A stretch of 16,541 nt of DNA from Candidatus Iainarchaeum sp. (GTDB lineage: Archaea > Iainarchaeota > Iainarchaeia > Iainarchaeales > 0-14-0-20-34-12), in NCBI GenBank assembly GCA_030649345.1, contig JAUSKK010000012.1:1-16541 (forward strand). The letters run 5' to 3'. The number at the start of each line of letters is the position of its first letter. Within the stretch, counting starts at the first letter, position 1. Position numbers and translations under genes: made by a program. This document shows, piece after piece, positions 2,088 through 16,541 of this stretch. The notes beneath the pieces were generated by a model that did not search any database, was not told where the DNA came from, and saw only the letters and a list, made by a program, of their open reading frames with translations.

Positions 2088-2201
2088 ATCCAAACCCTTC
2101 CAGGGTTTCGATGCATCCGGGATGACGGATCTTCATTTCATTCGATCCATCTGTACTAAATTATTTCATCTTTTGCTGAATGGTCTTGACTTTTTTTATT
2201 G

Positions 2202-2228
2202 ATGATTTAAACTTTTTCATTAAATCAT
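2202..2228. terminator. 9-bp hairpin (ATGATTTAA / TTAAATCAT) between the convergent rps17e and dus genes; possible bidirectional terminator
   Basis: Perfect inverted repeat 2202-2210 / 2220-2228 with T-runs on both sides, lying 23 nt beyond the dus stop codon. The function is inferred. Confidence 0.3.
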
Positions 2229-2250
2229 GCGTACTTTTTTGGTTTTACAA

Positions 2251-2943: not shown

Positions 2944-2952
2944 ATTTTTCGC

Positions 2953-3046
2953 CTATATTTTTTGCACTGGTTTCGTTGACCCATGTCAGAACCTTAGGTT
3001 CCGACACCTCCTGAGATCAACTCATATTTTTTGCACTGGCTTTGTT
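2953..3046. repeat. Direct duplication of the rad50 3' terminus (2953-2977 vs 3022-3046, offset 69 nt) bracketing a 44-nt hairpin-containing insert (2978-3021)
   Basis: ATATTTTTTGCACTGG is identical in both copies. Read on the minus strand, both copies encode TKPVQKI plus a stop (TAG distal, TGA proximal). The insert carries the hairpin TGTCAGAACC/GGTTCCGACA (2984-2993 / 2997-3006, one mismatch) and, on the minus strand, GGAGGTG (3005-3011). Confidence 0.8.
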
Positions 3047-5394
3047 ATTCCGTTATTGTCTTTGTCTCGTTCTAAAACATACAATGTTCCAGACGCAGCG
3101 TTTTCCATTTCTTTTTCATGGGTAATCAAAAACACTTGGTCTACCAATTCAGGCAAATGTTCTCGCATCATTAAACTTAATCTTGCAATAATATTGGAAT
3201 CTAAATTATGGGTTGGTTCGTCTAAAATTAACCAGCCTAAATTTCTGGCTAAAACAAACGAGAAAGCTATGCGGGTAATCAATGCCGCAGTACTTTTTTC
3301 GCCTCCGCTTAAAGTTCCTTCAATGGGAATCCATCCCAATCCAGCTTTTTTGACTTTTAAATCATAACTGTTATCTGAAATATCTAATTTAATGTCTGTA
3401 AAATCTTTGTACGGATAGATTCGTTCCCATAAATCTTGCATGGCTTGATTAATGGTTTCAATTAAATACAATCTTAATTCGGCTTGCGTTTGCCCTAAGA
3501 CATTCACGAAAATGCTTAATTGTTCTTGGCTGTGTTTTAATTCGTCGATGTGTTCTTTATATTTTTGAACTTCGTTTTGTTTGTTTTTAGTTTCGTATAT
3601 TTTGGCTTCCATTGTTTGACTGAGTTCTGTTAACATAGCAATTTCTTGTGTTATAAATTTTTCTTCTGCCTTGGTTTGTTCTAAGTGAGTCATACTTTCT
3701 TTGTATTCTTTTTCTGAAAAATTTAATGTATTTATTTTCTTTTGAATTTCCTGCAATACTTTTTCTGCGTTCTCTAATTCAGGTTGTTTTTGTTCCAATT
3801 CCAATGCTTGTTCCAGCTCTTTTAGGGTGTGTTCTTTTTCTTTAATTCTTTGTGCACTAAATTCTGTTGCTAATTTTACCATTATTTGCAGGTGTTCTTT
3901 TTCTTGCTCTTCTAAGACGTGCTGTTCTTTTTTTGATTTTTCCAATAATTCAAAGCTTTTTTCCAGCATTTCCAAGGTGTTGGATTGGTTTGCTTTCTTT
4001 TTTAACTCAATTCGCATTTTTTCAATTTCTTGTTTTTGATTGCGTATTGTTTCTTCCAGTAAAGCTATTTGTTCTTTGCATTGTTTTTTTTCATGAACAA
4101 TTTGTTCCAAGTTTTTGTTGGCATCGTCCATTACTTTTTGCATTTCATTTTGTTCTAGTTTTTTTCTGCACACTGGGCAATGCGCCCCGGCTTTTTTTAA
4201 AGAATTCAGGTTGTCATTTTCTTCGCTTTCTTTTCCTTCCAGTTTTCCAAAATTTTCTCTTCCTTGATTGAGTTCCTGGTGAATGTTTTGCAGGTTTTCA
4301 TCTATTCTTTTTAGGGTTTCTTCACTTTCTTCTATTTGTTTTTTTAGTTCTGTTTGTTTGGTGTACAATTCTTGTGTTGTTTTAATTCCTTGCGGAAGTT
4401 GATCTAAAATGGCGTGAATTTCTTTTTTTAATTTATTTAATCCTGCTTGAATTTGATGCTGTTTTTCTTCCAATACTGCTTTTTGTTTTTCTTGTTCTCG
4501 TATTTGTTTTAACTCTTGTGTGGTTTGTTTGATTTTTTCCTCCAGCTGCATCCGTGTTTCTTTCAGATATTTGCTGGTTTGAATTTCTTTTCGTAAATTT
4601 TCTATTTGAATTTGTGTGTGTGTTAGATTTTTTTGCAAGTTTAAAAATTCGGCTTGTTTTTCTTCCCATTTTCTTTGATTCAATACAAGCTTTTCTAGGT
4701 TGGCTGGAAATTCTTGTTTTTGCAAGTGTTTTTTTTGAATGTGTTCTTTAGTTTGCTGGGCTTTTTTTTCTAAATCCTGCAATTCAAGTACATTGATTTG
4801 TTGTTCCATTGCTTGCGCAAATTGTTCTCGTTCTTCAGCTAAAGTTTTGATTTTATTTTTGACTTTTACGGCTAAGCTTCGTGCAGTTTCGTATTTTTCT
4901 AAATCTAAAATAGAGTCAAATTTTTCTTTTCTTTGAGCTGCCGGCAGCCGCAGAAAATAATCGATATTATTTTGTTCGGAATAAATAGCCCGGGCAAATA
5001 AATCGTAATTAAATTCTAAAATATGCTCTAGTTTTTCAGTGACTTCTTTTACTTTTGGGCCTGCAATCAAGCGGTTGTTTTCAAGTAATTTGGCTTGCGG
5101 TGTTTTGTTTCTGTAAATCGTGCGTTCTAAAGAATACGTGTTTTGATTGTGTTTGAATTCGAGTTCAATTTTTGCATAATCTTGTAAATGCGGAGTATTC
5201 ATAATTAATTGTTCGATTTGAGTTTCTCTTCGTTGGATGGCCGGAAAGGTTCCAAACAAGCCATAACAAATAGCATCCATGACACTGGTTTTTCCTGAAC
5301 CGGAATTTCCAATCAATACATTGGTGCCTTGCGTGAATTCAAATTCTGAATCTTTGTGGGTCCGCCAGTTTTCTAGTTTGATTTTAGACAGCAT
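3022..5394 (-). CDS. rad50: DNA double-strand break repair ATPase Rad50
   Basis: 790 aa. It has an N-terminal Walker A (GNSGSGKTS), a long Glu/Lys/Gln-rich coiled coil with a central CxxC zinc hook (AHCPVCRKKL), a C-terminal ABC signature (LSGGEKS) and a Walker B (LILDEPTHNLD). Confidence 0.93.
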   Translation of the reverse strand: MLSKIKLENWRTHKDSEFEFTQGTNVLIGNSGSGKTSVMDAICYGLFGTFPAIQRRETQIEQLIMNTPHLQDYAKIELEFKHNQNTYSLERTIYRNKTPQAKLLENNRLIAGPKVKEVTEKLEHILEFNYDLFARAIYSEQNNIDYFLRLPAAQRKEKFDSILDLEKYETARSLAVKVKNKIKTLAEEREQFAQAMEQQINVLELQDLEKKAQQTKEHIQKKHLQKQEFPANLEKLVLNQRKWEEKQAEFLNLQKNLTHTQIQIENLRKEIQTSKYLKETRMQLEEKIKQTTQELKQIREQEKQKAVLEEKQHQIQAGLNKLKKEIHAILDQLPQGIKTTQELYTKQTELKKQIEESEETLKRIDENLQNIHQELNQGRENFGKLEGKESEENDNLNSLKKAGAHCPVCRKKLEQNEMQKVMDDANKNLEQIVHEKKQCKEQIALLEETIRNQKQEIEKMRIELKKKANQSNTLEMLEKSFELLEKSKKEQHVLEEQEKEHLQIMVKLATEFSAQRIKEKEHTLKELEQALELEQKQPELENAEKVLQEIQKKINTLNFSEKEYKESMTHLEQTKAEEKFITQEIAMLTELSQTMEAKIYETKNKQNEVQKYKEHIDELKHSQEQLSIFVNVLGQTQAELRLYLIETINQAMQDLWERIYPYKDFTDIKLDISDNSYDLKVKKAGLGWIPIEGTLSGGEKSTAALITRIAFSFVLARNLGWLILDEPTHNLDSNIIARLSLMMREHLPELVDQVFLITHEKEMENAASGTLYVLERDKDNNGITKPVQKI

Positions 5395-5442
5395 ATAGTG
5401 TTTGGGTTAGAAAAAGTGTAAAAACAGGTGCGCGAAATTTGC

Positions 5443-5646
5443 TTAGAGTAGACTCATTCCTTCAACTCGCGTGCGTAAATGAAACTTTGTTTCATTGCGC
5501 ATTAAAACCTTGCGGTTTTAATCGCGGGTTGGTAGCACGTGGTGCAGTTAAAATCAGCAGATTTTAACGCACATTAAAACTAATGAGTTTTAATTGTGCT
5601 TCCACTTCGTTTCAGTACCACTAAATTAGAGTAAACTCATTCCTTC
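5443..5646 (+). mobile_element. Expanded (162-nt core, 5464-5625) member of the GC-rich hairpin element family, flanked by a 21-24 nt duplication of the ef1b 3' end (5443-5463 vs 5626-5646)
   Basis: It contains the shared 19-mer GGTTGGTAGCACGTGGTGC at 5527-5545. The outer stem is CAACTCGCG (5463-5471) / CGCGGGTTG (5523-5531). The second stem is GTGGTGC (5539-5545) / GTACCAC (5615-5621). Four nested AT-rich hairpins lie at 5478-5496, 5501-5522, 5547-5568 and 5573-5594. The distal repeat encodes VEGMSLL plus TAA, against the real C-terminus IEGMSLL plus TAA. Confidence 0.6.
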
Positions 5647-5889
5647 GATTTCTACGTCAGCTATTCCTTTGATTTTGCGAAGTTCTGTGGCTAGAGTTTC
5701 AGCTAAACCTTCGTTTCCTTCAGGGACAATAACTCCCAAGCGAATAGCTACTAATCCAAAAGCCATGGGTTCAAATTTTAGGTCCATAAGTTGTCCGATT
5801 TTAATTTTTCGGATTTCAGTTTCAAGTGCTTTTTCAATCCCGGGTTCTTCGGGTGAAACTTTTAAAATAACAAAAGTATCTGCTGGCAT
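5626..5889 (-). CDS. ef1b: Translation elongation factor aEF-1 beta
   Basis: 87 aa, the typical size. EPMAFGLVAIRL and a C-terminal ...VEIEGMSLL match the aEF-1beta family pattern. It lies immediately downstream of a small Zn-ribbon gene, as is common in archaea. Confidence 0.85.
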   Translation of the reverse strand: MPADTFVILKVSPEEPGIEKALETEIRKIKIGQLMDLKFEPMAFGLVAIRLGVIVPEGNEGLAETLATELRKIKGIADVEIEGMSLL

Positions 5890-5904
5890 AAGCTTATTCC
5901 TGTT

Positions 5905-6066
5905 TTAGGGTCCCTTAAAGCCACAGTCTGAACAAGTGTATGGTGTGCTTTTGTTTTCGCAGTCCATACAGCGTAAAATTCGTGTTTTAAGACAAGCAGG
6001 GCACTTAAATTCAATGTAGTCTCGGATTATTTCTCGATTGCATGTTTGACACTTTTTAATTACCAT
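5905..6066 (-). CDS. Small zinc-ribbon protein (COG2888-like predicted RNA-binding Zn-ribbon protein usually linked to ef1b)
   Basis: The 53-aa product MVIKKCQTCNREI...FKCPAC...RCMDCENK...YTCSDCGF has four CxxC pairs. I trimmed the 101-aa track ORF to the ATG at 6064-6066 because the longer version runs into the tRNA gene. AGGTGG lies 8 nt upstream of this ATG. Confidence 0.7.
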   Translation of the reverse strand: MVIKKCQTCNREIIRDYIEFKCPACLKTRILRCMDCENKSTPYTCSDCGFKGP

Positions 6067-6129
6067 TAAAAACCACCTAAATATCTTCTTTAAAAAAAGA
6101 ATTGAATAACTATTAATTAATGAGAATGA

Positions 6130-6137
6130 TTTAAAAA
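6130..6137 (+). promoter_or_regulatory. TATA-box candidate (TTTAAAAA) for the tRNA-Arg gene
   Basis: It lies 23-30 nt upstream of tRNA position 1 (6160), the canonical archaeal TATA-to-start spacing. Confidence 0.45.
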
Positions 6138-6159
6138 GATAAGTTAAATCAGTCTCTTT

Positions 6160-6269
6160 GGGCCAGTGGCGCAACCTGGACAGCGCGTTCGGCTTCGGAA
6201 CGATTTTCATTTTATGTGAAATCGTGTGCAGTTACCGAAAGGTTGTGGGTTCGAATCCTGCCTGGCCCG
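6160..6269 (+). tRNA. tRNA-Arg: tRNA-Arg (anticodon UCG) with a 35-nt intron after position 37; no encoded CCA
   Basis: I folded it by hand. Acceptor stem GGGCCAG/CTGGCCC; D arm GCGC-AACCTGGACA-GCGC; anticodon stem TTCGG (6188-6192) / CCGAA (6235-6239); loop CT-TCG-G...A. The variable region is AGGTT, the T arm is GTGGG-TTCGAAT-CCTGC and the discriminator is G. The 3' end is followed by CTCC, so CCA must be added enzymatically. Confidence 0.8.
6199..6233 (+). other. tRNA intron at the canonical 37/38 position (boundaries ambiguous by 1 nt)
   Basis: 35 nt interrupt the anticodon loop. There is an internal hairpin CGATTTTCA / TGAAATCG. I could not confidently draw a bulge-helix-bulge motif by eye. 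Confidence 0.6.
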
Positions 6270-6274
6270 CTCCC

Positions 6275-6362
6275 CTTTTCTTTTTTCTAAAAAGAAAAGT
6301 GTAAGTTGTTTTCAAATTCCCAAGAATTTGAAAAATTATCAAAATTTGTAGATTTTGATAAT
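6275..6362. repeat. Three consecutive perfect 11-bp AT-rich hairpins between the tRNA 3' end and the cca 3' end
   Basis: Hairpin A is 6275-6285 / 6289-6299 (CTTTTCTTTTT/AAAAAGAAAAG). Hairpin B is 6309-6319 / 6324-6334 (TTTTCAAATTC/GAATTTGAAAA). Hairpin C is 6335-6345 / 6352-6362 (ATTATCAAAAT/ATTTTGATAAT). The T-run of hairpin A starts 6 nt after the tRNA end, which fits oligo-T termination. Confidence 0.75.
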
Positions 6363-6384
6363 TCCCAAAAGAAAAAACCGCAAA

Positions 6385-7758
6385 TTAGTAGTCTAAAAAT
6401 TCTTCCTTTCCTTTCAAGAATTGAGTGAAGTATTTTTTGAATTCAGAATTTTTCTTGCATAAAGCCAATATCTTTTTTTCGTTCAATAATTCGGACTTCT
6501 TTAATGCTTTTTTCAAAGGTTGTTTTTCAATATTATTTTTACATGCATGGACAATTAATTTTTCTACTTGATAAAATTTTCGTAATTTTTCAATCACCCA
6601 GCGTCCTTCTTCAATTCTGGGGCCTGCCAAGCTTTTTTTATGTGCTTTTAAAAACTTTTCAGAATTTTCTTTGTCCGTAACTTCTGGTCCGAAATGATTT
6701 TTTACTTGATCAATGGTTTTGCTATGCATGTCTATGATAATGGCCATGCATTGTTTTTCATCGCTCCAGTCGTCTAATCTATCTACGTTAAATCCATTTA
6801 GTTCTAGCTGAATTTTTAATTTTTTAGAAAATCTTCTTAACTGTCCATGAACAATGTCACTCACCATGTCTGAAGTGTACGGCATGGTTAAAACAATTAA
6901 GTTTTTCTCCGCAGAGTATTTTTTGATTTTATTTAATGGCCACGAATGTTTTTTATTTTCAAAAAAGAAATCCAAAGAAGGTTTTTTCAAATAGGCTCTA
7001 GCGGCGGCAATAAATCGTGCAAATTGATTGTAGGATAACGCACTGGCTACATTTCTATTTTTGTCGGTTGGGTCAACTACAATTAAGTGGTGCTGAAATT
7101 TTTTTCTAGTATCTGTTTCGGTTTCATATTGTTTTTCTAAATCAATGATTGTTTCTTTTTTCCAGATGCTGACTGCTTTTAAACATTTTTCAAAACTTCC
7201 GTATTGGACAATTAATAATTCGACCACATAACCCGGCATGCTGGATACTTTAATTTTAGCTCCATAACAATTAATTCCTTTTAAGAATGATTTCAGCAAG
7301 CGTACTTGGTCTTTCATTTCTTCGGTTAATTTTTTTTCCAGCCAAGCTTGATGAAACGGTGATCTGTCCACAGCACTTTGGAGTTGGTCGGCTTTTTCTA
7401 CTTTGTAACTGGGCACAATTTCAATTTCATATCCTTGAATATTTCCTCGAATATAGGGGTGTTCTGCAAATTGTTGTTTCCAAGTATGGTTTTTGAAGAC
7501 TGCTTTTCCTAATTTGAGTCCTTCTTTTTCAAATTCCACACGAGTTAATTCTTTAGGGTATTGGACAAAAATATCTATGTCTCGATCTTTGCGGACATGC
7601 GTATTTCGAGCTAGACTTCCGCACAATAAAACATTTACATGAGGCCCTTTCATTTTCTTGATTTCAGCCATTACTTTGCTGGCGATTTCCAGTTCTTGCT
7701 GGAGTTCATTCGGCGAAGGCTTGATTTTGCTGATTACTTTTTTTTCCAAGGCATTCAT
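6385..7758 (-). CDS. cca: CCA-adding enzyme (class I archaeal tRNA nucleotidyltransferase)
   Basis: The family pattern is present: an N-terminal helical region, then CGSLARNTHVRKDRDIDIF (the GS...DxD nucleotidyltransferase motif), then the AEHPY and SAVDRSPFH motifs typical of archaeal Cca. I set the start at the ATG at 7756-7758 (MNALEKKV...). The track start at 7806 is a TTG lying inside a promoter-region repeat. Confidence 0.87.
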   Translation of the reverse strand: MNALEKKVISKIKPSPNELQQELEIASKVMAEIKKMKGPHVNVLLCGSLARNTHVRKDRDIDIFVQYPKELTRVEFEKEGLKLGKAVFKNHTWKQQFAEHPYIRGNIQGYEIEIVPSYKVEKADQLQSAVDRSPFHQAWLEKKLTEEMKDQVRLLKSFLKGINCYGAKIKVSSMPGYVVELLIVQYGSFEKCLKAVSIWKKETIIDLEKQYETETDTRKKFQHHLIVVDPTDKNRNVASALSYNQFARFIAAARAYLKKPSLDFFFENKKHSWPLNKIKKYSAEKNLIVLTMPYTSDMVSDIVHGQLRRFSKKLKIQLELNGFNVDRLDDWSDEKQCMAIIIDMHSKTIDQVKNHFGPEVTDKENSEKFLKAHKKSLAGPRIEEGRWVIEKLRKFYQVEKLIVHACKNNIEKQPLKKALKKSELLNEKKILALCKKNSEFKKYFTQFLKGKEEFLDY

Positions 7759-7791
7759 GTATAAATTCAATGTGTTGAATAAATAAAAGAG

Positions 7792-7893
7792 TATCTTTGT
7801 TTCCAATTGAATGTCTTATTTAACACTCAATACTCCGGAACATGCAAAAAGATATTTTTGTTTCCAATGGGTGTCTTATTTAACACTCAACAC
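7792..7893. repeat. Imperfect direct repeat of about 42 nt (7792-7833 vs 7853-7893) in the divergent cca / ATPase promoter region
   Basis: TAT[C/T]TTTGTTTCCAAT, then 4-5 variable nt, then an identical 18-mer GTCTTATTTAACACTCAA, then [T/C]AC. The period is 60-61 nt. Each unit contains TGT-N10-ACA dyad symmetry around a TATTTAA core. Confidence 0.8.
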
Positions 7894-7946
7894 CTTGACT
7901 TAATCTTAAATAGGAGTTAATGAATAGTGTTACCTAGGAAGAGCGT

Positions 7947-9518
7947 GTGTATATGGGTTCGATTACAAAGTCTAATAAACTTTCAAAAAATGTATTGGAT
8001 GCGTATGACTTTATTGAAATTTTAGAAAGTTTTCCATTTAATGAATATCATTTTAACGGTTATTCTTTAAGTGCTGAAGATCAAAAAATCACAGATGGTT
8101 TGTCTGCTTTTTTTTCTAGAAAACTTTCTTTGGAAAAATTGCGTTCGATTTTAACGTTTTCTAAAAAAGAAGAATTTTTGCAGGAATTTAGCGTGATTGT
8201 GCAGTCCGTAGAAGCCGACCAATTATTGGACTTACTGCCTTTGCCGGAGAAAGTGGCTGCTTTAGAAAAATCACTGCAGGAAATTTTTTCTAAATATTTT
8301 GCCCAAAAATCCAATGCTCTTGTTTTAGCTCAAATGGTAGTAGACAATTCTGTTGGTTTTGGAGAACTAGCTCCTTTGCTGCGGGATGAACATTTAGAAG
8401 AAGTCATGGTAAACTCAGCCCAAAAACCAGTGTTTGTTTTTCATAAAAAATTCGGAATGTGTAAAACCAATATTGTAGCAACCCATGAACAAAATTTGCG
8501 TTCTTTAATTATTCGAATTGCCAAGCATAGCGGAAAAGCATTTGATGAAATTAATCCTTTATTGGATGCCCGCTTACCGGATGGCAGTCGTGTGAATGCT
8601 ACTTTGTCCACCATAACTCCTTCAGGCACTAGTTTGACTGTGCGAAAGTTTACTAAAATTCCTTTATCGATTGTGGATTTTTTAGAAAAAAAAACAATCA
8701 GTTACGACTTGGCAAGCTTTTTGTGGTTAATGGTAGAAGGCATGACAATTGAGCCTATGAATATTATTGTAACTGGAGGAACAGGCTCGGGCAAAACAAC
8801 TTTATTGAATGTACTAAGTACTTTTATTCGTCACTCAGATAGAATTGTTTCGATTGAAGATACTTTAGAGTTAGATTTGGGAACCCGGGAAAATTGGATT
8901 CAAATGGAAGCTAAGCCTAGCATTCATGGAAGTGTTCCTGTGACTATGGATGATTTATTAAAAAATTCTTTGCGTATGCGCCCAGATCGTTTGGTGGTTG
9001 GAGAAGTCAGAGGCGAAGAAGCGCAAACTATGTTTGCAGCCATGGATACAGGTCACAAAGGAATTTTGGGAACCTTGCATTCAAATTCTGCCCGTGAAAT
9101 GTTGGTTCGATTGAAAAGCAAACCTATGTCTGTTCCGAATAGTATGCTGCCTTTGCTGGATTTAACTGTAGTCATGTTTAAAATGTATGATCGAGAAATT
9201 GGTGTTCTGCGAAGAATCAAAGAAGTTTCTGAAGTTTCCCGAATGGAAGACAAAGTTTTGCTGAGCACTGTATTTGAATGGGATAAAGGAAAAGACGATA
9301 CCGGAAAAACCGATGTTCCCAGTCACTTGTTTGATTATTTAGCTGAAAAATCCAATATGACGAAAACTCAATTGCGTGCCGAACAATTGGTTCGTCAAAG
9401 AATTCTTCAATGGCTGGTGGAAAACAAAATTAAAGACAGCAGGCAAGTAGAAGAAGTCATTCAAGAATATTATATTCATCCAACCAATATTTTGGAAAAA
9501 ATATCTAAAGATTTGTAG
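7947..9518 (+). CDS. Type II/IV secretion-family ATPase (archaeal FlaI/ArlI / PilB / VirB11-like hexameric ATPase)
   Basis: Walker A is VTGGTGSGKTTLLN. It is followed by IVSIEDTLEL, RMRPDRLVVGEVRGEEA (Walker B/Asp box) and GHKGILGTLHSNS (His box), the canonical GspE/FlaI motif series. The track start is a GTG at 7947, with an alternative ATG at 7953. No adjacent FlaJ/PilC-type membrane partner is present. Confidence 0.85.
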   Translation: MYMGSITKSNKLSKNVLDAYDFIEILESFPFNEYHFNGYSLSAEDQKITDGLSAFFSRKLSLEKLRSILTFSKKEEFLQEFSVIVQSVEADQLLDLLPLPEKVAALEKSLQEIFSKYFAQKSNALVLAQMVVDNSVGFGELAPLLRDEHLEEVMVNSAQKPVFVFHKKFGMCKTNIVATHEQNLRSLIIRIAKHSGKAFDEINPLLDARLPDGSRVNATLSTITPSGTSLTVRKFTKIPLSIVDFLEKKTISYDLASFLWLMVEGMTIEPMNIIVTGGTGSGKTTLLNVLSTFIRHSDRIVSIEDTLELDLGTRENWIQMEAKPSIHGSVPVTMDDLLKNSLRMRPDRLVVGEVRGEEAQTMFAAMDTGHKGILGTLHSNSAREMLVRLKSKPMSVPNSMLPLLDLTVVMFKMYDREIGVLRRIKEVSEVSRMEDKVLLSTVFEWDKGKDDTGKTDVPSHLFDYLAEKSNMTKTQLRAEQLVRQRILQWLVENKIKDSRQVEEVIQEYYIHPTNILEKISKDL

Positions 9519-9523
9519 GATTT

Positions 9524-9659
9524 TTATTTCAAACTTTTTTTTATTTCTTTTTCCAGTCTTTCAACCGCGGTGGCGGTTGGTAGCACGTGGTGCTTTCGCT
9601 TTGCTACAGCACCACTTTCTTTATTTTAATGTTTTTTTTATTTCTTTTTCCAGTCTTTC
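9524..9659 (+). mobile_element. GC-rich two-hairpin element (58-nt core, 9563-9620) flanked by a 39-nt duplication of the taw3 3' end (9524-9562 vs 9621-9659)
   Basis: Stem 1 is CAACCGC (9562-9568) / GCGGTTG (9573-9579). The shared 19-mer lies at 9575-9593. Stem 2 is GTGGTGCT (9587-9594) / AGCACCAC (9608-9615). The distal repeat encodes ERLEKEIKKSLK plus TAA, against the real C-terminus ERLEKEIKKTLK plus TAA (36 of 39 nt identical). The distal copy starts 5 nt after the ATPase stop codon. Confidence 0.65.
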
Positions 9660-10229
9660 CAGTTGCCTCAAATTTTTTTCTAATTTTTGATTGGCAATCT
9701 CAACTACGTGTTTCAAATATTTTTGTTCAATCAAAATAGTATTTTTTTCTTTGACTGGCAGTGAAATGGTTTGCGTGCCTTGGAATTCAGTTAAAAATTT
9801 TCCTTCTTTTGCAACCATAATGCCACCTCTTTTGATTCCGGCTTTTTTCATGGATTGAATAATTTTTTCTGCATTTTCCAACGAGTCTGTTCCTAAGTGT
9901 AAAATAAAGGAATCCATTTTGAACCAAACTGTTCCTTGAGTTTTTTCATTTAAGGATTTCCATATTTCTTCAAATTGTACAAATTCATGTTTTTTGAAAT
10001 GAAATAAGCTTTCGCGTTTGTCTTTTTCGTTTCCTTGCATGTCCAATAAAATAATTCTTCCAGAACAACTGGAAGTAGTGTAGTAGTTGTTTGTTTTAGA
10101 AATGTATTCACATAAAGAAATAATCGGGGTGTCCATGCGTCCAATGTTTAAAGCATGCTGAAAACTTTCCGTATGCCTTGATTTAATCATGCCAAATCGT
10201 GTTTCTGCCGTGCTTTTATGGGGTTTCAT
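9621..10229 (-). CDS. taw3: tRNA wyosine-derivative methyltransferase Taw3 (TYW3 family)
   Basis: 202 aa. DTPIISLCEYISKTNNYYTTSSCSGRIILL contains the TYW3-family S-x-CSGR signature. Confidence 0.78.
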   Translation of the reverse strand: MKPHKSTAETRFGMIKSRHTESFQHALNIGRMDTPIISLCEYISKTNNYYTTSSCSGRIILLDMQGNEKDKRESLFHFKKHEFVQFEEIWKSLNEKTQGTVWFKMDSFILHLGTDSLENAEKIIQSMKKAGIKRGGIMVAKEGKFLTEFQGTQTISLPVKEKNTILIEQKYLKHVVEIANQKLEKNLRQLERLEKEIKKTLK

Positions 10230-10280
10230 GTATACGAATCCTTTTAATAGTTTATTCTAAGAATAGTACTAGGGGTTTAT

Positions 10281-11057
10281 TTGTTTAAATATTGGGTATT
10301 ATTTTTATTTTGCTTAATTTTAGCCGCAAGTACTTTAGCTACTGTTGAAATGGTTGAACCCAAGCCCAGCAATGTTTTAGCCAATACTACAATTACTTTG
10401 GGGTCAGCTCAGCCTGGAGAATCTGTTAAATTGGTTTTAACCCGCGGTTTAGGCAGAAACAAATGGCAAGATGTACGCATTGATGCACTGTCTTTGCCTT
10501 CAGGTTGGACGTACGAAAAACAAATTCAAGATCAATCGTTTATTGTTTGGATTAAAGTTCCAAGTACAGCTAACTTGGATTCATATAATTTGAAAGTAAT
10601 TGTTTCTTCTGAACTTTTAACTGAATCTTTTAATGCGTTGCTTTTAGTTAAAGACGATTTATTGACTGTGTCCATGACCGACTTATTGCAATCTACTCAA
10701 GTTGGAGAATCTGGAACATTCAAAGTTTCCTTCCAAAACAATAGTATTGCTGCGCATAATTTAAAAATTTCCAGTGATTTACCCAGCCAATGGTTTGCTG
10801 AACAAACCTTAGAAATTTTACCCGGAGAATTTAAACAAATTGAATTATCGGTAACCACCCGAAGTTATGGAACTCGAGATTTTTCATTCACTCTTGAATC
10901 TACTTTGAATAATTCAAAAAAAGTATTTCCTGCAACTTTAACTATCCATCCAACTTTGAAAAGCAAATTTTCTGCAGTATTTTACGGCTTTCCTTTTCTG
11001 TCTTTGAGTTTGCTGCCGTATTATTTGATCGATGGCTTTTTGTCTTTGGTTCAGTAA
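10281..11057 (+). CDS. Predicted secreted or membrane-anchored protein (N-terminal signal or anchor, beta-rich ectodomain, C-terminal TM helix)
   Basis: TTG start. The hydrophobic N-terminus is FKYWVLFLFCLILAASTLA. The body is Ser/Thr/Asn-rich and repetitive, with beta-sandwich-like character. The hydrophobic C-terminus is FYGFPFLSLSLLPYYLIDGFLSLV. I recognise no family confidently. Confidence 0.6.
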   Translation: MFKYWVLFLFCLILAASTLATVEMVEPKPSNVLANTTITLGSAQPGESVKLVLTRGLGRNKWQDVRIDALSLPSGWTYEKQIQDQSFIVWIKVPSTANLDSYNLKVIVSSELLTESFNALLLVKDDLLTVSMTDLLQSTQVGESGTFKVSFQNNSIAAHNLKISSDLPSQWFAEQTLEILPGEFKQIELSVTTRSYGTRDFSFTLESTLNNSKKVFPATLTIHPTLKSKFSAVFYGFPFLSLSLLPYYLIDGFLSLVQ

Positions 11058-11071
11058 AATAATTTAATTAA

Positions 11072-11206
11072 TTAGCCCAATTTTTTTCCAACACCAAACC
11101 GCGGGGCCATGCCCCTCAGTTTTAGGTTAATCCTGATCCCTGATTGCAGTTCTGTTGAACTGCAGTACTTTGAAATTTGTTTTTTTAGTCTAATTTTTTT
11201 CCAACA
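11072..11206 (+). mobile_element. Diverged member of the hairpin element family (91-nt core, 11094-11184) flanked by a 22-nt duplication of the elp3 3' end (11072-11093 vs 11185-11206)
   Basis: The left terminus CAAACCGCGGGGC compares with CAACCGCGGTGGC in the taw3 copy. The right terminus CTGCAGTACTTT compares with CAGCACCACTTT. Internal hairpins are GGGGC/GCCCC (11103-11107 / 11111-11115) and ATTGCAGTTC/GAACTGCAGT (11143-11152 / 11157-11166). The distal repeat encodes VGKKLG plus TAA, against the real VGKKLD plus TAA. Confidence 0.55.
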
Positions 11207-12987
11207 TATATTCCGTCTTTTTGATAACCTAACTTGTAATAATATTCTCTTGCACCTACACCTGCAATGACTAAAAGTTTTTTGCAGTCCAATTCTTCGC
11301 TGGCAATCTTTTCAGCTGTCTCTAGCAATTTTTTCCCCCATCCTTTGTGCTGCATGACTTGCTTTCCTAATAATTGAGTATCCAAAGGAACTGTGGTTCC
11401 AAATACATGGAGTTCTCGAATGCCTGCTGTTTTTGGAGTAATTTCCGGCCGGAATGGTTGTGACGGCAATCGCAAGCGTATGAATCCAAACAATAAATTG
11501 TTTTGTGTGTTTTCTAAAGAAATGAAATATTCTAGTCCTTGGCTGGAGTCATATTTTTCAATTATAATTTCTGCATTCTCTAATCCTGATTCAATTCCTT
11601 GCTTGTAAGAAGAAATTCCTGCTTCTCTACAGCGAATGCATTGGCAAACAATTTTTTTGTTTTTCAATTCTTCTTCCACCAATTGTCTTAAATTGTTTTT
11701 ATTAATTCCAGTGGACGCGAGTTTAACTGGAATGTCTCTTTGCACCCGATGAACTCTGCAGTATTTTTGAATATATTTTTTTCCTTCAGCAATAATTTCT
11801 GCAGCTGCTTCTGTTTCTAAAGGTGTGAATTCTCCGCGTTCCCATAATTTCTGTAAAGGAGTTCCAGGCATGACCATGCAAGGGTAAATTTTCAATCCAT
11901 CCGGCCGATAATTTGGATTGGCAAATAATTCTTGAAACATTTCAATATCTTGTGTTCGATTGCTTAATGGCTGGCCAGGCATAATGTGAAAAACAGTTTT
12001 CAAAAAACTATCCTTGGATAATTGCACAGCTTCCATGGTGTCTTGGATTGTATGGCCACGGTTGGTGTATTTTAATATTTTATCTTGCAGGCTTTGAACT
12101 CCAATTTCGACTCGCGTACAACCCAATTTTAGCATTTGATCTAAGTGTACTTGTTTGCACCAGTCTGGTTTGGTTTCAATGCATAAAGTAACACAACGAA
12201 TCTTCGCATGTTCATTTCGTTGATGTTCGTGTTCTAGATTTAAAATTCCTTTTTCGCTTAATAGTTTGTTTTTAATTTCTGTTCTAACTTTGGGATCGTG
12301 TTCATTTAAAGGCAAATTAAAATATTCTGAAAATTTTTCGAAGTCAATTTCTTGGGTTTCTGAATTGTAAAATTTTTCTCCAAAATCATTCATGGCTTTA
12401 AACGAACCCGTAATAAATTCTTCTTGATATCCTTTCGGGAAACTGGGGAATGTTCCGCCCATGACAATGAGTTCTACTTTGTCGGCTGTATGGCCTGTGG
12501 ATACGTATTGCGTTAATCGATTAATGGTTTGAAGATAGGCATCATAGTCATTCAAGATTGCGCGCATGCTAGCAGGTTCGTTTCCAGTATAACTTTTAGG
12601 AATGTCTCCAAAAAAACTATTTAAGCCACCTGGACAATAAATACAAGTTCCATGTTGGCAATTGATAGGCTTGGTCATAATGGCAACTGGCGTAACTCCG
12701 CTGAGAGTTCGCACTGGCTTAATGCCCAATATTTTGCTGAGTTGTTTAAAGTTTTTTCCAGTATATGCTAAAATATCAGGGTCTGAAGGCATTTCTGTTA
12801 AGTTTAATTCATGGCATAAATCCATTTTGAGTCTGTTAAGTTGTCGTTTGTTTTGAATTTGCCCAGAACCAATAGCTTCGACAATTGTCTGTGCAATTCT
12901 TCGTATTTTGTCTTGTTTCTCAACCGCGGTCTCGGTTGGTAGCACGTGGTGCTTAACAGCACCACTGTCTTTGTTTTGTTTCTGCAT
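11185..12987 (-). CDS. elp3: Elp3-family tRNA uridine(34) modification enzyme (radical SAM + GNAT acetyltransferase)
   Basis: 600 aa. It has the radical-SAM cysteine cluster CQHGTCIYCPGG, a conserved TIM-like core (VELIVMGGTF, RVEIGVQS) and a C-terminal GNAT region (QHKGWGKKLLETAEKIA). Residues about 5-25 are encoded by the inserted element at 12906-12983. Confidence 0.92.
   Translation of the reverse strand: MQKQNKDSGAVKHHVLPTETAVEKQDKIRRIAQTIVEAIGSGQIQNKRQLNRLKMDLCHELNLTEMPSDPDILAYTGKNFKQLSKILGIKPVRTLSGVTPVAIMTKPINCQHGTCIYCPGGLNSFFGDIPKSYTGNEPASMRAILNDYDAYLQTINRLTQYVSTGHTADKVELIVMGGTFPSFPKGYQEEFITGSFKAMNDFGEKFYNSETQEIDFEKFSEYFNLPLNEHDPKVRTEIKNKLLSEKGILNLEHEHQRNEHAKIRCVTLCIETKPDWCKQVHLDQMLKLGCTRVEIGVQSLQDKILKYTNRGHTIQDTMEAVQLSKDSFLKTVFHIMPGQPLSNRTQDIEMFQELFANPNYRPDGLKIYPCMVMPGTPLQKLWERGEFTPLETEAAAEIIAEGKKYIQKYCRVHRVQRDIPVKLASTGINKNNLRQLVEEELKNKKIVCQCIRCREAGISSYKQGIESGLENAEIIIEKYDSSQGLEYFISLENTQNNLLFGFIRLRLPSQPFRPEITPKTAGIRELHVFGTTVPLDTQLLGKQVMQHKGWGKKLLETAEKIASEELDCKKLLVIAGVGAREYYYKLGYQKDGIYVGKKLD
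12906..12983 (+). mobile_element. Compact member (48-nt core, 12921-12968) of the hairpin element family inserted in frame in the elp3 5' coding region, flanked by a 15-nt direct repeat (12906-12920 vs 12969-12983)
   Basis: Stem 1 is CAACCG (12921-12926) / CGGTTG (12933-12938). The shared 19-mer lies at 12934-12952. Stem 2 is GTGGTGCT (12946-12953) / AGCACCAC (12958-12965) with loop TAAC. The repeat offset is 63 nt, or 21 codons. The reading frame stays open across it (..MQKQ-NKDSGAVKHHVLPTETAVEKQ-DKIRR..). Confidence 0.65.
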
Positions 12988-13025
12988 ATATAATATAATA
13001 ATATAGGGAACATTTTATTTGTAGT
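12988..13025. promoter_or_regulatory. 38-nt divergent promoter spacer (ATATAATATAATAATATAGGG...TTTTATTT) between elp3 and the 13026 ORF
   Basis: It consists entirely of A/T-rich TATA-like sequence between two divergent ATG codons. The spacing implies very short or leaderless 5' UTRs. Confidence 0.4.
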
Positions 13026-13373
13026 ATGACCAAAAATCTAGTGGCTGTGGTTGGTGCTGGAAAAGGCACTTGGGGGCATTTAGCTCGATTAATTGATTCT
13101 GAATCTTTTGGAACAATTTTGCTGGTTAGCAATGATTTTGGAAAAGAAAACTTTAAGCCAGCCAAGCCAGTGGACTGGTTGTTGTTGAATTCTCGTTCTG
13201 GTTTTGAAGTTTTAAAAAATGCCATTAAAGAAAAATTGCCGGAAGGCGAATTAACTGTTTCTATTATTTCTGGCACAGGCAAAGAACACATGGCTTTATT
13301 GACTGCCATCAAAGAAGCTAAAGTCAAATTTGAATATGTGATCTTAACTGGCGACGGGACTAAATATTATTAA
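13026..13373 (+). CDS. Hypothetical small Rossmann-like protein, 115 aa
   Basis: Clean ATG-initiated ORF. It has an N-terminal beta-strand plus Gly-rich loop (LVAVVGAGKGTWGH) and a later ISGTGKEHMALLTAI, which weakly recalls the Gly-rich loop and [ST]xxx[KR] motif of CARF-like ligand-binding Rossmann domains. That resemblance is not secure. Confidence 0.55.
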   Translation: MTKNLVAVVGAGKGTWGHLARLIDSESFGTILLVSNDFGKENFKPAKPVDWLLLNSRSGFEVLKNAIKEKLPEGELTVSIISGTGKEHMALLTAIKEAKVKFEYVILTGDGTKYY

Positions 13374-13411
13374 TTTTTTGAATTCTTTTTTAAAAGTAGA
13401 TTGCTGTTAGT

Positions 13412-13834
13412 TTATTCTTTGGTTAAAGAAATTCCTTCAATAATTACATTGCCGGTTCCATCTTTGACTTTAACTTTGGGATGGTTTTCTTCTATTTCAA
13501 ACACGATTTTGTGTTGGGGCTGAACCAATGTTCTGTAGGCATTGTGATTGAATAAGCCTAAACACATAGTTTCTTTGCCTTTAACTTTGCATTTTCCTTC
13601 TTTGACTACATAGGTTTCAATTTTTCCTTTTCCTAAGCCTAAATTGAGAACACTATCTCCTTTTTCTGGTTTAACACTATACGTTCCTTCGGTTTGTTCT
13701 TCAGTAGTCATGTCAAATTCTTTCCAAAAACTAGTCCCGTGTCTGGAAAAACTTCCATTGTTTTTGAATTCAAAGTCTCGTTTATGATTTGGGCCTTGTT
13801 CAATCCATTTTCCAATAAATTCTGTGTTCGCCAT
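13412..13834 (-). CDS. Hypothetical protein, 140 aa, beta-rich (lipocalin-like feel); no family recognised
   Basis: ATG-initiated ORF with an AT-rich upstream region (TTTAAAAAG at about 13870). The Lys/Gly/Glu-rich alternating pattern suggests a beta-barrel. I recognise no motif. Confidence 0.55.
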   Translation of the reverse strand: MANTEFIGKWIEQGPNHKRDFEFKNNGSFSRHGTSFWKEFDMTTEEQTEGTYSVKPEKGDSVLNLGLGKGKIETYVVKEGKCKVKGKETMCLGLFNHNAYRTLVQPQHKIVFEIEENHPKVKVKDGTGNVIIEGISLTKE

Positions 13835-13883
13835 GTTTTTCCTTAATTTATTATTAGTTTAGTTTGTATTTAAAAAGCTAATT

Positions 13884-15467
13884 CTATGATCGCTCGTATG
13901 TTCTTTTTTCAATGGTTTGCTGAATGGGTGAATTTTCTTTTCGTTCTTCGAATGCAATTTGAATTAATTTTTCTCCAGCCGGTGTTGGATACTTTCCAGT
14001 CAAACAAGCAGTGCATAAGCTATTCTTGGGTTTTCCAATGGCTTCCACTAAATGATCTAAAGTTTGATATTGTAAAGAATCTGCTCCAATATAGTTTCGA
14101 ATGCGTTCCATAATTTCTTCGGATAATTCTTTTCCTGAAAATTCCTGTAATTCTTTTTTAGTCATAACATTGTTGGCAGTCAATTCATTCATGGTGCTCA
14201 TATCAATTCCATAAAAGCACGGAAATAATATAGGAGGGCAAACTACGCGCATATGCACTTCTAATGCTTTTCCTTCTGTGCGAATATAATTCACTAAAGT
14301 TTTAGCTGTAGTACCTCGAACAATACTGTCTTCGACCAAGATTACTTTTTTTCCACGCAATACTGCTTTATTTAATGTAAATTTGGCTTTGACTTTTTCC
14401 ATGCGTTTGTGTCCTTCAATAAACGTTCGGCCAATATATCGATTGCGAATTAATCCTTCTTGGCTGGGTAAACCCATCTGCAAAGCATACGCGTCTGCAG
14501 CTGGCTTGGCTGTATCTGGTACAGGAACTACAATTGTATTTCCGTCAAATTTTGTTTTTTCATTTTTAGCTAACAATTCACCTAATTTATAACGTGCATT
14601 GTAGACACTGGCTCCATCAAATTCACTGACTACGTTTGCAAAATAAACCCATTCAAACATGCAGTGCTTGAATTCTTTTTTGGGAGCAAATCGTTTTACT
14701 GTAATTGAACCATTTTCGATTTGAGCTAAATGTCCGGGTTCTAAAACTTTAATATCCTCTACATCCATGTTCGTTAATGCTGCAGTTTCACTGGCTGCAA
14801 AAACTACATCGTCTTTTTTTCCATACACTAAAGGCCGAAATCCAAATGGATCTCGAAATAAAGCAAGTCTTCCATCAGCGTCTACATAGGCTGAACTATA
14901 AGCACCGTCCCAGTCTTTGGATGCATTGCCTACAACTTCGCTTAAATCTTTTTTAATATCTCCAGCCATTTCGCGTGCAATAAAATGCATCATGACTTCA
15001 GTGTCTGTATCTGTAAACAAATGATAACCGTTTGAATTCAAATCTTTTTTTAATTCTGAAAAATTAGAAATCTGTCCATTGAATGCATAACTAAACCATT
15101 TCCATTTTCTTCCATGCATTCGTTCTATGGGCATGGCACTGCAAGTATCATTGGTTCCACAGGTTGCATAGCGTACACTTCCAATTCCTTTAATGCCGGA
15201 ATATTTTTGCATAATGCTTAAATGTTTTCCTTGATGGTGTGCACGAAAAGCAGTCGGCACAGTTCCTAAATCTTTAAAAGTATTCAATAATTCTTGTCGC
15301 TTTGGATTATAGGTTGTCAATCCAGCACTTAATTGTCCTCTATTTTGTTGTTGTAAAAGCAGGTTATAAATGTAAAAAGCAGCTCCGCCTACAGGATGTT
15401 TGTCTAATGAACTTTCCAGACTGACTGCAGCAATTCCGCAATTTTCGTTTAATTCTTCAGCAGTCAT
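13884..15467 (-). CDS. purF: Amidophosphoribosyltransferase (glutamine-PRPP amidotransferase, PurF family)
   Basis: An N-terminal propeptide precedes the catalytic Cys (NENCGIAAV), as in class II Ntn glutamine amidotransferases. The PRPP-binding PRTase loop is KKVILVEDSIVRGTT. C-terminal Cys residues (CTACLTGKYP) are typical of PurF. Confidence 0.9.
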   Translation of the reverse strand: MTAEELNENCGIAAVSLESSLDKHPVGGAAFYIYNLLLQQQNRGQLSAGLTTYNPKRQELLNTFKDLGTVPTAFRAHHQGKHLSIMQKYSGIKGIGSVRYATCGTNDTCSAMPIERMHGRKWKWFSYAFNGQISNFSELKKDLNSNGYHLFTDTDTEVMMHFIAREMAGDIKKDLSEVVGNASKDWDGAYSSAYVDADGRLALFRDPFGFRPLVYGKKDDVVFAASETAALTNMDVEDIKVLEPGHLAQIENGSITVKRFAPKKEFKHCMFEWVYFANVVSEFDGASVYNARYKLGELLAKNEKTKFDGNTIVVPVPDTAKPAADAYALQMGLPSQEGLIRNRYIGRTFIEGHKRMEKVKAKFTLNKAVLRGKKVILVEDSIVRGTTAKTLVNYIRTEGKALEVHMRVVCPPILFPCFYGIDMSTMNELTANNVMTKKELQEFSGKELSEEIMERIRNYIGADSLQYQTLDHLVEAIGKPKNSLCTACLTGKYPTPAGEKLIQIAFEERKENSPIQQTIEKRTYERS

Positions 15468-15506
15468 ACTGACTTATTTTCTAAACTGTTTATTAATTCG
15501 TCTATG

Positions 15507-16541
15507 CTATTCAACCCGATATCTTAGAATGGCAACCATTCCACCTAAGCCTAATAATTTTTTGCCGGGTTCGTTTTCTGTATTAAAAATATGGACTTTT
15601 CCGTTTCGTTTCTCGCATTGATTCATAATTTCTTCAATTTCGGTTTTGTTTTCAATCAATGTTTTATCTGCAATTAACAAAAAATCAATAGCCCCCAAAT
15701 TCAAAGCAGTCTTTACTTCTTGTAAACCATACGTAACCAAGCCAGTCTGGTTGCCCAATTCTTTTAAAGTTCGATCCATCAGCTGAGTTTCCACTGCTTG
15801 CTCTGTTTCTTTCAAAATAGACTGCATGCTTTTACTTTGCATGAGTTCTTCCAAACCAGTAACTCCTAAAGAAGAAATTCCTTCTCTATAAATTTTTCCA
15901 ACAAAACTTTTTTCCAAGAGTTTGTGCAAGTCTTCTTTTTCAAATCCTGGTCCTGAAATAATTAAAATTTTAGGATTCATTGTTTTGATTTTGGTTTCAA
16001 TTTCTGAAAAATATTTTTTTTGCCATTCTTCTTCTGCAAAATGTTTTCCTGTTTTTCCAGATTTAATGGTCAGCTTGTGTTCTGTTTTGAATTCTTTGAT
16101 TTCATAAAATTCTGCTTGCTCGTCATCTATCAATATTGCTAGTTTGCTTTCTTTGTGGACTGCTTCGACTGCTTTTTTTAATCGTTCTATTTGATAGTTT
16201 TTGATTTCTTTTTTTTGCAAAGTCAATGCTTGTCCTAATTCAATTTCTAATGAATGATGGCTTTGTTTGGGCGCTAAATCTTCGGGTTTTCCTGCCAAGA
16301 CAATTCCTTGAATTCGTAACAAATTTGAATGTTTGTCAAAGTCTGCTTTTTCAATTTGGAGTTCTAAATACAATTTTACTCTTCGGTCTTCTTGTCCTTC
16401 GTTTCCTTTAATTTTTCGAGTGGTACTTCCTTGAGCAATATCTCCTTTTTCAATAATTTGCATTAAATGCCATAAATCATCCAATACTTCTGGAACCAGA
16501 ATAATGACTTTTTCGTACTTGTTAATTTTAACAATTTTCAT
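15507..16541 (-). CDS. pelA: Pelota (aDom34) mRNA surveillance / ribosome rescue factor
   Basis: 344 aa. The N-terminal ...LVPEVLDDLWHLMQIIEKGD is the characteristic Pelota opening (e..dDlWhLyniI..GD). The C-terminal eRF1-like domain ends in ...GGMVAILRYRV. The ATG coincides with the last 3 bases of the window. Confidence 0.9.
   Translation of the reverse strand: MKIVKINKYEKVIILVPEVLDDLWHLMQIIEKGDIAQGSTTRKIKGNEGQEDRRVKLYLELQIEKADFDKHSNLLRIQGIVLAGKPEDLAPKQSHHSLEIELGQALTLQKKEIKNYQIERLKKAVEAVHKESKLAILIDDEQAEFYEIKEFKTEHKLTIKSGKTGKHFAEEEWQKKYFSEIETKIKTMNPKILIISGPGFEKEDLHKLLEKSFVGKIYREGISSLGVTGLEELMQSKSMQSILKETEQAVETQLMDRTLKELGNQTGLVTYGLQEVKTALNLGAIDFLLIADKTLIENKTEIEEIMNQCEKRNGKVHIFNTENEPGKKLLGLGGMVAILRYRVE

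Follow-up and report, generated by a model that had tools for sequence, protein, structure and literature searches.

The window, the whole stretch of DNA that was analysed, is an entire NCBI MAG contig of 16,541 nt with 34.6% G+C. It carries archaeal housekeeping genes: Rpb6, S17e, Dus, Rad50, EF1-beta, a small zinc-finger ribosomal protein, an intron-containing tRNA, a CCA-adding enzyme, a T2SSE/FlaI-type ATPase, TYW3 (taw3), Elp3, an amidotransferase and an eRF1/Pelota-like protein. In a search of 5.8 billion proteins, the nearest relatives of the window's Elp3 (MDO8427898.1) came from Ca. Iainarchaeum-type DPANN MAGs and were just 59-60% identical; the lineage is therefore isolated. Rfam returned the tRNA at 6160-6269 and sub-threshold noise, nothing more, and no transposase, integrase or reverse transcriptase domains were found in the 16.5-kb window, in agreement with the initial annotation. 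That annotation had also raised the possibility of a strain-chimeric assembly. Two contigs of the independent Logan assembly of run SRR13727527 correspond to window positions 2089-7136 and 7109-15571 with 100% identity. Together they cover 2089-15571, so that all repeat and insert structures described here were reproduced by a second assembler, and misassembly is therefore very unlikely.

Between the convergent ATPase and taw3 genes lies a GC-rich insert, element A, bracketed by two copies of the taw3 3' end:

9523-9562, - strand: distal copy of a 40-nt duplication, a ghost taw3 C-terminus ERLEKEIKKSLK-stop (...KKSLK-stop)
9562-9619, + strand: element A, consisting of hairpin 1, linker, hairpin 2 and tail; about 57-58 nt, 58% G+C
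9562-9579: hairpin 1, stem CAACCGC (9562-9568) / GCGGTTG (9573-9579)
9580-9586: linker GTAGCAC
9587-9615: hairpin 2, stem GTGGTGCT (9587-9594) / AGCACCAC (9608-9615)
9616-9619: 4-nt tail TTTC
9620-9659, - strand: proximal copy of the 40-nt duplication, the real taw3 3' end ERLEKEIKKTLK-stop (...KKTLK-stop), stop codon 9621-9623

The initial annotation had described two GC-rich stems, a G+C count of 22/32 at the start of the element in an AT-rich window, a 19-mer recurring in three copies of the same orientation, and a 39-nt direct repeat with 36/39 identity that separates a real from a ghost taw3 end. All of this was reproduced. Both stems are present, and folding of either strand gives them as the minimum-free-energy structure (-23.3 and -23.6 kcal/mol; z = -2.3 and -3.5). 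Positions 9562-9593 contain 22 G+C in 32 nt. The 19-mer GGTTGGTAGCACGTGGTGC occurs exactly at 5527, 9575 and 12934, every copy on the + strand, and in none of 200 shuffles. The direct repeat (9523-9562 against 9620-9659) is one base longer than described, 40 nt with 37/40 matches, and the ghost stop codon (9524-9526) lies 5 nt past the ATPase stop codon (9516-9518). A 40-nt target has thus been duplicated; the gene-proximal copy keeps taw3 intact, and the ghost tail is non-functional and slowly decaying.

Three further inserts share sequence with element A. Element B is a member of the same family inside the 5' coding end of Elp3, element C is a longer member next to EF1-beta, and element D shares its left terminus only:

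12909-12920, - strand: proximal copy of the 12-14-nt duplication of B, in gene sense AGAAACAAGACA
12921-12965, + strand: element B, 45 nt, A family; 31/33 identical to A over its left part, with the same stem 2
12966-12983, - strand: distal copy of the duplication of B, adjoining the Elp3 ATG (12985-12987), with a 6-nt internal slippage expansion
5443-5465, - strand: ghost EF1-beta C-terminus VEGMSLL-stop, distal copy of the 21-23-nt duplication of C
5466-5625, + strand: element C, 160 nt, A/B family; it carries the 19-mer, and its 3' part is about 77% identical to that of A
5626-5648, - strand: real EF1-beta 3' end IEGMSLL-stop (stop codon 5626-5628), proximal copy of the duplication of C
11061-11093, - strand: ghost Elp3 C-terminus VGKKLG-stop, distal copy of the 22-33-nt duplication of D
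11094-11173, + strand: element D, 80-nt GC-rich multi-hairpin insert (z = -4.5)
11174-11206, - strand: real Elp3 3' end VGKKLD-stop (stop codon 11185-11187), proximal copy of the duplication of D

Elements A and B have a common left end CAACCGCGG, the 19-mer and a common right end CAGCACCAC, and differ in their loops only. The right end of C is CAGTACCAC, and the right terminus CAGYACCAC is common to A, B and C. The left terminus (C)AAACCGCGG of D is that of A and B, and its interior is different. What corresponds to the two loops of A is filled in C by four nested AT-rich hairpins, and the fold of C has z = -6. All family copies fold far better than shuffled sequence. G+C content is 58-59% in A and B and 39% in C, the range for A-D being 39-59% against 34.6% in the window. 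The 8-mer AACCGCGG occurs four times in the window where 0.12 are expected, and three of the four are left ends of repeat-flanked inserts; its occurrence at 10442, like that of CAGCACCAC at 7087, is in coding sequence without hairpins and was judged to be chance. The reading of B in frame on the - strand is SGAVKHHVLPTETAV, and the window Elp3 has about 21-23 additional N-terminal residues (...SGAVKHHVLPTETAVE...) that match B plus its duplication and are present in 0/10 homologs. The ghost Elp3 copy at 11061-11093 starts 3 nt past the stop of a convergent 258-aa gene.

Short-range direct repeats, with at least 19/21 matches and copies 30-250 nt apart, were sought in a blind scan. It detected five loci in the window against 0.045 expected from Markov simulations, with a simulation maximum of one. 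Two of the five were new relative to the initial annotation:

2953-2978, - strand: ghost Rad50 C-terminus TKPVQKI-stop, stop codon TAG, 9 nt from the Dus ATG
2979-3021, + strand: insert E6, 43 nt, 51% G+C, between the Rad50 stop and the Dus start
3022-3047, - strand: real Rad50 C-terminus TKPVQKI-stop, stop codon TGA
7796-7833 and 7856-7893: repeat pair flanking a 22-nt filler in the divergent promoter region of the CCA-adding enzyme and ATPase genes

E6 forms an 11-bp hairpin on the - strand (-15.3 kcal/mol) and is unrelated in sequence to A-D. The four copies originally counted are real, and the window holds more such structures than that total. Likewise, the variability of the duplications was correctly noted, and the limits of 15-39 nt given for them shift to about 12-40 nt, the lengths at the individual sites being about 12-14, 21-23, 22-33, 24-26 and 40 nt. 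Altogether there are ghosts of four gene 3' ends, each with its stop codon (Rad50, EF1-beta, taw3 and Elp3), one in-frame insertion (Elp3 5' end) and one promoter-region duplication, and the inserts fall in at least three mutually unrelated sequence groups.

The boundaries of these structures are polar. Of the four 3'-end duplications, three (A, C and E6) have their outer edge no more than 1 nt from the stop codon, a feature absent from the initial annotation, and the edge in D lies about 11 nt beyond it. Nothing obvious selects for a duplication boundary at a stop codon. Extra bases (TTTC in A, TAAA in C) are confined to the junction where the right end meets the duplication; D perhaps has an extra TTTGA at its right junction, where the boundary is ambiguous (CAGTA is alignable to the left flank). 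All family copies have one orientation, antisense to the gene whose end is duplicated, and in two convergent pairs the duplicated end is that of the - strand gene. Mismatches between ghost and real ends concentrate toward the stop-codon end. The ghosts have diverged by 7-18% against 100% conservation of the 19-mer core in its three copies. No terminal inverted repeats were found, the left end CAACCGCGG and the reverse complement of the right end GTGGTGCTG being dissimilar. The flanks have no common motif and none is shared 5' of the copies, the elements have no poly-A or U tail, and G-U wobble pairs favour neither strand consistently.

Homologs of the elements were not found in several searches. 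An exact scan with the 19-mer gave no match in genome contigs and none in viral contigs; two matches in metagenome contigs lie in GC-rich unrelated contexts and were taken as chance. The hairpin of D was absent from viral contigs, as was that of the insertion in a relative described below. Translations of the open frames of the elements gave no score against the protein database, the matches being too short to reach E <= 10, and the elements had no Rfam match at E <= 10. ARAGORN found nothing, and the elements are without tRNA similarity. Neither element C, compared with phages by BLAST, nor element A plus its flanking repeats, compared with plasmids, had a match, and BLAST of every insert against 13 loci of relatives detected no homologs. 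About 150 kb of related loci contain a single comparable structure. Look-ups of S17e and of the 416-aa ORF for an adjoining Logan contig returned no entry. Four known kinds of sequence were considered and rejected. A VR/TR pair of a DGR was set aside for the very small size, the housekeeping targets and the missing RT, a C/D box sRNA for the missing box C, and a BHB intron for flanks that are direct rather than complementary; a tRNA fragment was likewise dismissed. A limited literature search on DPANN and other archaea found no description of such elements; the initial annotation likewise knew of no described archaeal element with these properties.

The initial annotation had proposed that two convergent genes a few bases apart were the ancestral state and that an element was inserted there with a target duplication, and had suggested a search for empty sites in related genomes. 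Gene order is kept in Ca. Iainarchaeum (L005-L007) and in two further relatives (L021 and L026), and in these syntenic Iainarchaeum-like genomes the same gene pairs abut or overlap. In Ca. Iainarchaeum no base separates TYW3 from the T2SSE ATPase (0-nt gap, 13188/13189), which supports the proposed ancestral arrangement, and the window junction has 102 nt. Elp3 overlaps its convergent neighbor by 8 nt, compared with 127 nt at the window junction, and EF1-beta is 36 nt from Rad50, compared with 231 nt. Comparable junctions in the two further relatives have 6-84 nt. Subtraction of the insert and one repeat copy reduces the window junctions to 5 nt (taw3/ATPase), 14 nt (Elp3), 48 nt (EF1-beta/Rad50) and 9 nt (Rad50/Dus). 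The real C-termini align with the ends of the orthologs, and the ghosts are surplus. Since the relatives are distant (about 59% Elp3 identity), this is architectural evidence and does not represent a pre-insertion allele for A.

A filled site and its empty counterpart were found in the clade itself. L006 (GCA_002687735.1) carries a 101-nt insertion relative to L005 and L007, which are otherwise about 100% identical. The insertion is also missing from L004 (85% identical), so that the site is empty in three assemblies. It consists of an 82-nt GC-rich sequence (7117-7198) and a perfect 19-nt duplication, ATACTGCTATTCTTGCCAT, which starts exactly at the start codon of ABCE1. The surplus ghosts and this filled and empty pair support insertion with target duplication, and the pair shows directly that small GC-rich pieces with long duplications do insert at gene boundaries in this clade. 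A hairpin-pattern scan found one copy of the L006 insert among GTDB representative genomes; 12 other matches to the pattern, in GC-rich bacteria, were taken as chance. This single-copy insert shows that the inserted piece is not necessarily a high-copy repeat. The L006 junctions have no microhomology that would support a switch back. Among ten strains (L031-L040) of a relative with 29% G+C no polymorphic hairpin inserts were found, their differences being a toxin-antitoxin cassette, AT-rich deletions and scaffold gaps only. A TnpB-type insertion-sequence gene is present in one relative.

The explanation that we favor, with moderate confidence, is that element A is a copy of a small, non-coding, GC-rich hairpin insertion family (A, B and C, and D by its left terminus) that was copied into a tail-to-tail junction of about 5 nt in a compact, AT-rich DPANN-type genome. 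The coding strand of the host gene would be nicked at or just after the stop codon (TAA, with a presumed ancestral TAA for Rad50), and the freed 3' end would be extended by copying a small structured template, the + strand of the element, most likely as RNA. The conserved ...CAGYACCAC end of the element would then lie at the priming junction, where the extra TTTC and TAAA sit. A break of the opposite strand 12-40 nt deeper inside the gene, followed by fill-in of the overhang, would create a long duplication of variable length. The enzyme would be supplied in trans, not encoded in the window. Such insertions would be harmless because the duplication regenerates the gene end, and would therefore be the ones to persist where hardly any intergenic space exists, purifying selection removing events that are not anchored at a real gene end. 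This polar, primed copy-in accounts most simply for the length range of the duplications, the defined ends, the extra bases, the orientation, the strand of the duplicated genes and the boundary at the stop codon. Its logic is that of target-primed reverse transcription, and the template could equally be DNA.

A rather unlikely alternative does without a dedicated mobile element: the structures would have been left by replication template switching or by break repair, either MMBIR/FoSTeS-like or as filler captured at staggered breaks. A nascent or broken 3' end at a gene boundary would copy a short hairpin-prone stretch from another place and resume 12-40 nt back, giving the order repeat-insert-repeat in one step. 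The heterogeneity of the inserts (the A/B/C family, D, E6 and the 22-nt filler) is better fitted this way, and the uniqueness of the 82-nt insert in its genome, the wide variation in duplication length and the extra bases at one junction also agree with it; a single orientation is expected of a replication-linked process, and gene ends, the sites of collision between transcription and replication, are where the events concentrate. Random switching, however, would not give A and B identical left and right boundaries in different flanks, nor the same right boundary in C. Neither donor copies nor junction microhomology were found, with no supportive microhomology at L006, and the 19-mer core is fully conserved while the ghosts have decayed. 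Less probable again are MITE-like derivatives of a DNA transposon that makes widely and variably staggered target cuts, as do IS1634 and IS1549, for which long variable direct repeats are documented (PMC2266710). The conserved termini and variable interiors of A, B, C and D resemble those of MITE families, and the TnpB-type gene of the relative indicates that insertion sequences occur in the clade. Nevertheless, terminal inverted repeats (CAACCGCGG against GTGGTGCTG) and a transposase in the window are lacking, every copy has one orientation, and the same architecture surrounds unrelated inserts. The classical IS-derived MITE, which the initial annotation had already set aside, fails on terminal inverted repeats and on the short, fixed-length duplication, those of the window being long and variable and no mobility gene being present there.

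Resident functional hairpins, acting as terminators or insulators of convergent genes or as a small RNA gene, with repeats that arose by local duplication, are a very improbable explanation. It is suggested by the perfectly conserved core of the three copies, by a T-rich run after the terminal hairpin in the + orientation (A past the ATPase, D past the 258-aa gene) and by a generic terminator scan whose top two sites are the hairpins of B and D, with weaker ones in A and E5. However, relatives with the same gene order have no spacer at these sites, one copy (B) lies inside the Elp3 coding region, the overall count of terminator-like sites, 14 against an expected 11.9, shows no enrichment, and Rfam has no match. 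Transcription termination in archaea does not require hairpins, and plain tandem duplication would give the order repeat-element-repeat-element, not repeat-element-repeat. We give hardly any credence to an assembly artefact or strain chimera, or to the remnant of a site-specifically integrated element whose repeats are att sites. The window is indeed a MAG contig, and integrases acting at gene 3' ends likewise leave direct repeats around the insert. Yet the second assembler gave identical sequence, the repeat-element-repeat unit of A is 137 nt, shorter than a typical short read (150 nt assumed), with three differences between its two repeat copies. The repeat differs at each site, being taken from the local gene end with no common att core, the inserts measure just 43-160 nt with no integrase in the window, and the same family is present at three loci. 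An integrase-borne element fails on the same grounds, the site-to-site differences of the repeat and the missing integrase. Casposon or Cas1-type integration fails too, with no inverted repeats and a threefold variation in duplication length; duplications are of fixed size in casposons (14-15 bp) and for CRISPR spacers (the repeat length).

Among target-primed reverse transcription, repair capture and template switching, the evidence points decisively to none. The process may be generic rather than specific to the 19-mer family, because the unrelated inserts D, E6 and the 22-nt filler have the same duplication architecture, and the single-copy L006 insert and the heterogeneous inserts fit a generic repair or template switch as well as they fit a dedicated element. 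Tentatively, there could be an undescribed DPANN pathway in which small structured nucleic acids are copied in from a nick at the stop codon, with a second break 12-40 nt inside the gene and regeneration of the gene end; some of these nucleic acids would form a two-hairpin family that propagates itself and lacks inverted repeats. There is a substantial, though less than even, chance that the insertion pathway is new for archaea. The hairpins are probably selfish passengers, with a possible side effect on the transcript ends of the flanking genes, and function beyond selfish persistence is not indicated. The elements are best filed as small palindromic mobile repeats of a kind not found described for archaea.

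Several known systems share part of these properties. Rickettsia palindromic elements (RPEs) are, like the present elements, small, non-coding, hairpin-forming repeats of a reduced AT-rich genome with no associated transposase, and are tolerated as in-frame insertions in protein-coding genes (PMC10969869). Such tolerance is also seen for element B, which adds about 21 codons to Elp3 that are in 0/10 homologs. RPEs differ in being bacterial, about 100-150 bp long and of unrelated sequence; the elements have no Rfam match at E <= 10 and no match to phages (C) or plasmids (A). Furthermore, RPEs are not known for long duplications that regenerate gene ends, whereas the present copies lie mostly just outside an ORF beside a ghost terminus. 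Mitochondrial GC clusters and the double-hairpin elements of Allomyces are, like A-D, GC-rich units of one or two hairpins (about 30-80 nt) scattered over a compact genome that is AT-rich; their units may also merge or nest, as in element C. Their mobility was inferred from presence and absence, with the mechanism unknown, and yeast GC clusters are flanked by 2-3-nt repeats, AG or ACT (PMC4478555). In contrast to these organellar elements with 2-3-nt duplications or none, the present ones have 12-40 nt and reside in an archaeal chromosome (Rad50, Elp3, eRF1, TYW3). No sequence similarity to GC clusters or double-hairpin elements was found.

Likeness to SINEs and processed pseudogenes extends to target duplications of variable length, defined non-inverted ends, extra bases at one junction, and heterogeneous small structured inserts using one insertion route with the enzyme in trans. 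Variable-length duplications around a defined element were found here as well, including the perfect 19 nt in L006, but unlike in SINEs no A-rich tail or internal promoter was identified in the elements. We know of no report of target-primed reverse transcription of non-intron RNAs in archaea. The only prokaryotic transposable elements documented here with long variable direct repeats are IS1634 and IS1549, whose repeats measure 8-514 bp with no mechanistic model and whose family is frequent in Euryarchaeota (PMC2266710). These are 1.5-2 kb long with a DDE transposase and terminal inverted repeats, whereas the present inserts of 43-160 nt have neither. REP/REPIN sequences and IS200/IS605-derived palindromes are also GC-rich extragenic hairpins with asymmetric ends and orientation bias that are mobilised in trans. 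They make no target duplication and adjoin a short conserved tetra- or pentanucleotide, in contrast to the long duplications without a motif found here.

The genomes of DPANN archaea are tiny and leave almost no DNA between genes, and little is known of the mobile DNA of these archaea. In 16.5 kb of such a genome at least five insertions have survived, each rebuilding the gene end that it struck, so selfish or repair-derived DNA can spread in a genome otherwise without safe landing sites. Duplications that are long and variable, together with ends that lack inverted repeats, point towards an insertion chemistry undocumented in archaea, for which target-primed copying and template switching are the candidates; with an RNA template it would amount to target-primed retroposition of non-intron elements in an archaeon. 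The same puzzle is decades old for mitochondrial GC clusters and double-hairpin elements, and an archaeon would give a second, independent system. Ghost decay gives relative ages for frequent insertion events, and ghost gene ends are a simple searchable signature for such events in other compact genomes. For the organism itself, these insertions offer a route of origin for new 3' UTRs, spacers between convergent genes and N-terminal protein extensions.

The copies of the gene ends that flank the hairpin inserts do not differ evenly along their length. Where insert A duplicates the 3' end of taw3 and insert D that of Elp3, the mismatches between the ghost (the non-functional copy, distal to the gene) and the real end are concentrated towards the end of the duplication that carries the stop codon (9523-9534 against 9620-9631 for A, and 11061-11078 against 11174-11191 for D). 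All three mismatches of the A duplication fall within 5 nt, leaving the inner 28 nt perfect, and the inner 15 nt of the D duplication are free of mismatches. Uniform neutral decay would not be predicted to produce such clustering in the ghosts.

Further structures were found in the window, among them the following:
2979-3021, E6, a 43-nt hairpin insert between a ghost and the real Rad50 C-terminus
6160-6269, a tRNA gene interrupted by an intron of about 39 nt (Rfam match, 49.5 bits)
7796-7893, two direct copies of 38 nt with 79% identity, separated by a 22-nt filler (7834-7855)

With its flanks, E6 makes up a sixth repeat-insert-repeat structure (2953-3047), which the initial annotation did not list. 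The Rad50 C-terminus is present twice around it, as a ghost TKPVQKI* ending in TAG and as the real TKPVQKI* ending in TGA, with the start of Dus 9 nt away. The sequence of E6 is unrelated to the 19-mer family to which inserts A, B and C belong. Another candidate, E5 (2090-2157), is situated directly 3' of the S17e stop; it starts with CCAAACC, finishes with CTGTAC, folds weakly and is flanked by a repeat of only 5 nt (TAAAT). It is possibly a degenerate relative of D. That the independently assembled Logan contig L030 stops at window position 2089, 1 nt outside E5, suggests that the E5 junction coincides exactly with either a variant or the boundary of a repeat.

The direct repeat at 7796-7893 is located in the promoter region between the divergent CCA-adding enzyme and ATPase genes, which measures 194 nt in the window versus 66 nt in Iainarchaeum. 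Either a further duplication-with-insert event or a promoter duplication could explain it.

Element B, in the stretch 12921-12987, is transcribed with Elp3 and apparently also translated with it. The sole ATG start codon of Elp3 is upstream of B, and the sole alternative is a GTG inside it. The insert (45 nt), the duplication (12 nt) and slippage (6 nt) add 63 nt in total, and the Elp3 frame is therefore kept.

Nested in the loops of element C (5466-5625) are four AT-rich hairpins, three of which resemble one another (TTAAAAC...GTTTTAA); one 61-nt block among them has GTGC at both borders. More AT-rich hairpins occur 3' of the tRNA gene (6270-6384), a gene found by Rfam but missed by ARAGORN. 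These hairpins may be very small palindromic inserts of a second class.

Insertions were also detected in relatives:
L006 7098-7217 (GCA_002687735.1, Ca. Iainarchaeum), a GC-rich insertion of 82 nt, polymorphic and accompanied by a 19-nt target duplication without mismatches
L031 15148-16284 (also in L034 and L039), a 1137-nt ParE/HicA toxin-antitoxin cassette
L026 17236-18414, a TnpB (OrfB_IS605/Cas12f-like) gene

The 19-nt duplication begins at the ABCE1 ATG. The 82-nt insertion is absent from L004, L005 and L007, and a pattern scan of the genome collection yielded a single occurrence. The ParE/HicA cassette, carried by only some strains in the population of a relative with 29% G+C, sits between the copies of an imperfect direct repeat, about 46 nt long, that occurs singly in strains lacking the cassette; this is another insertion between long duplicates of its target. 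The TnpB gene occupies an insertion site between the genes for the CCA enzyme and aS21 in a relative with 51% G+C, and elements of the IS200/IS605 type are therefore present in the clade.
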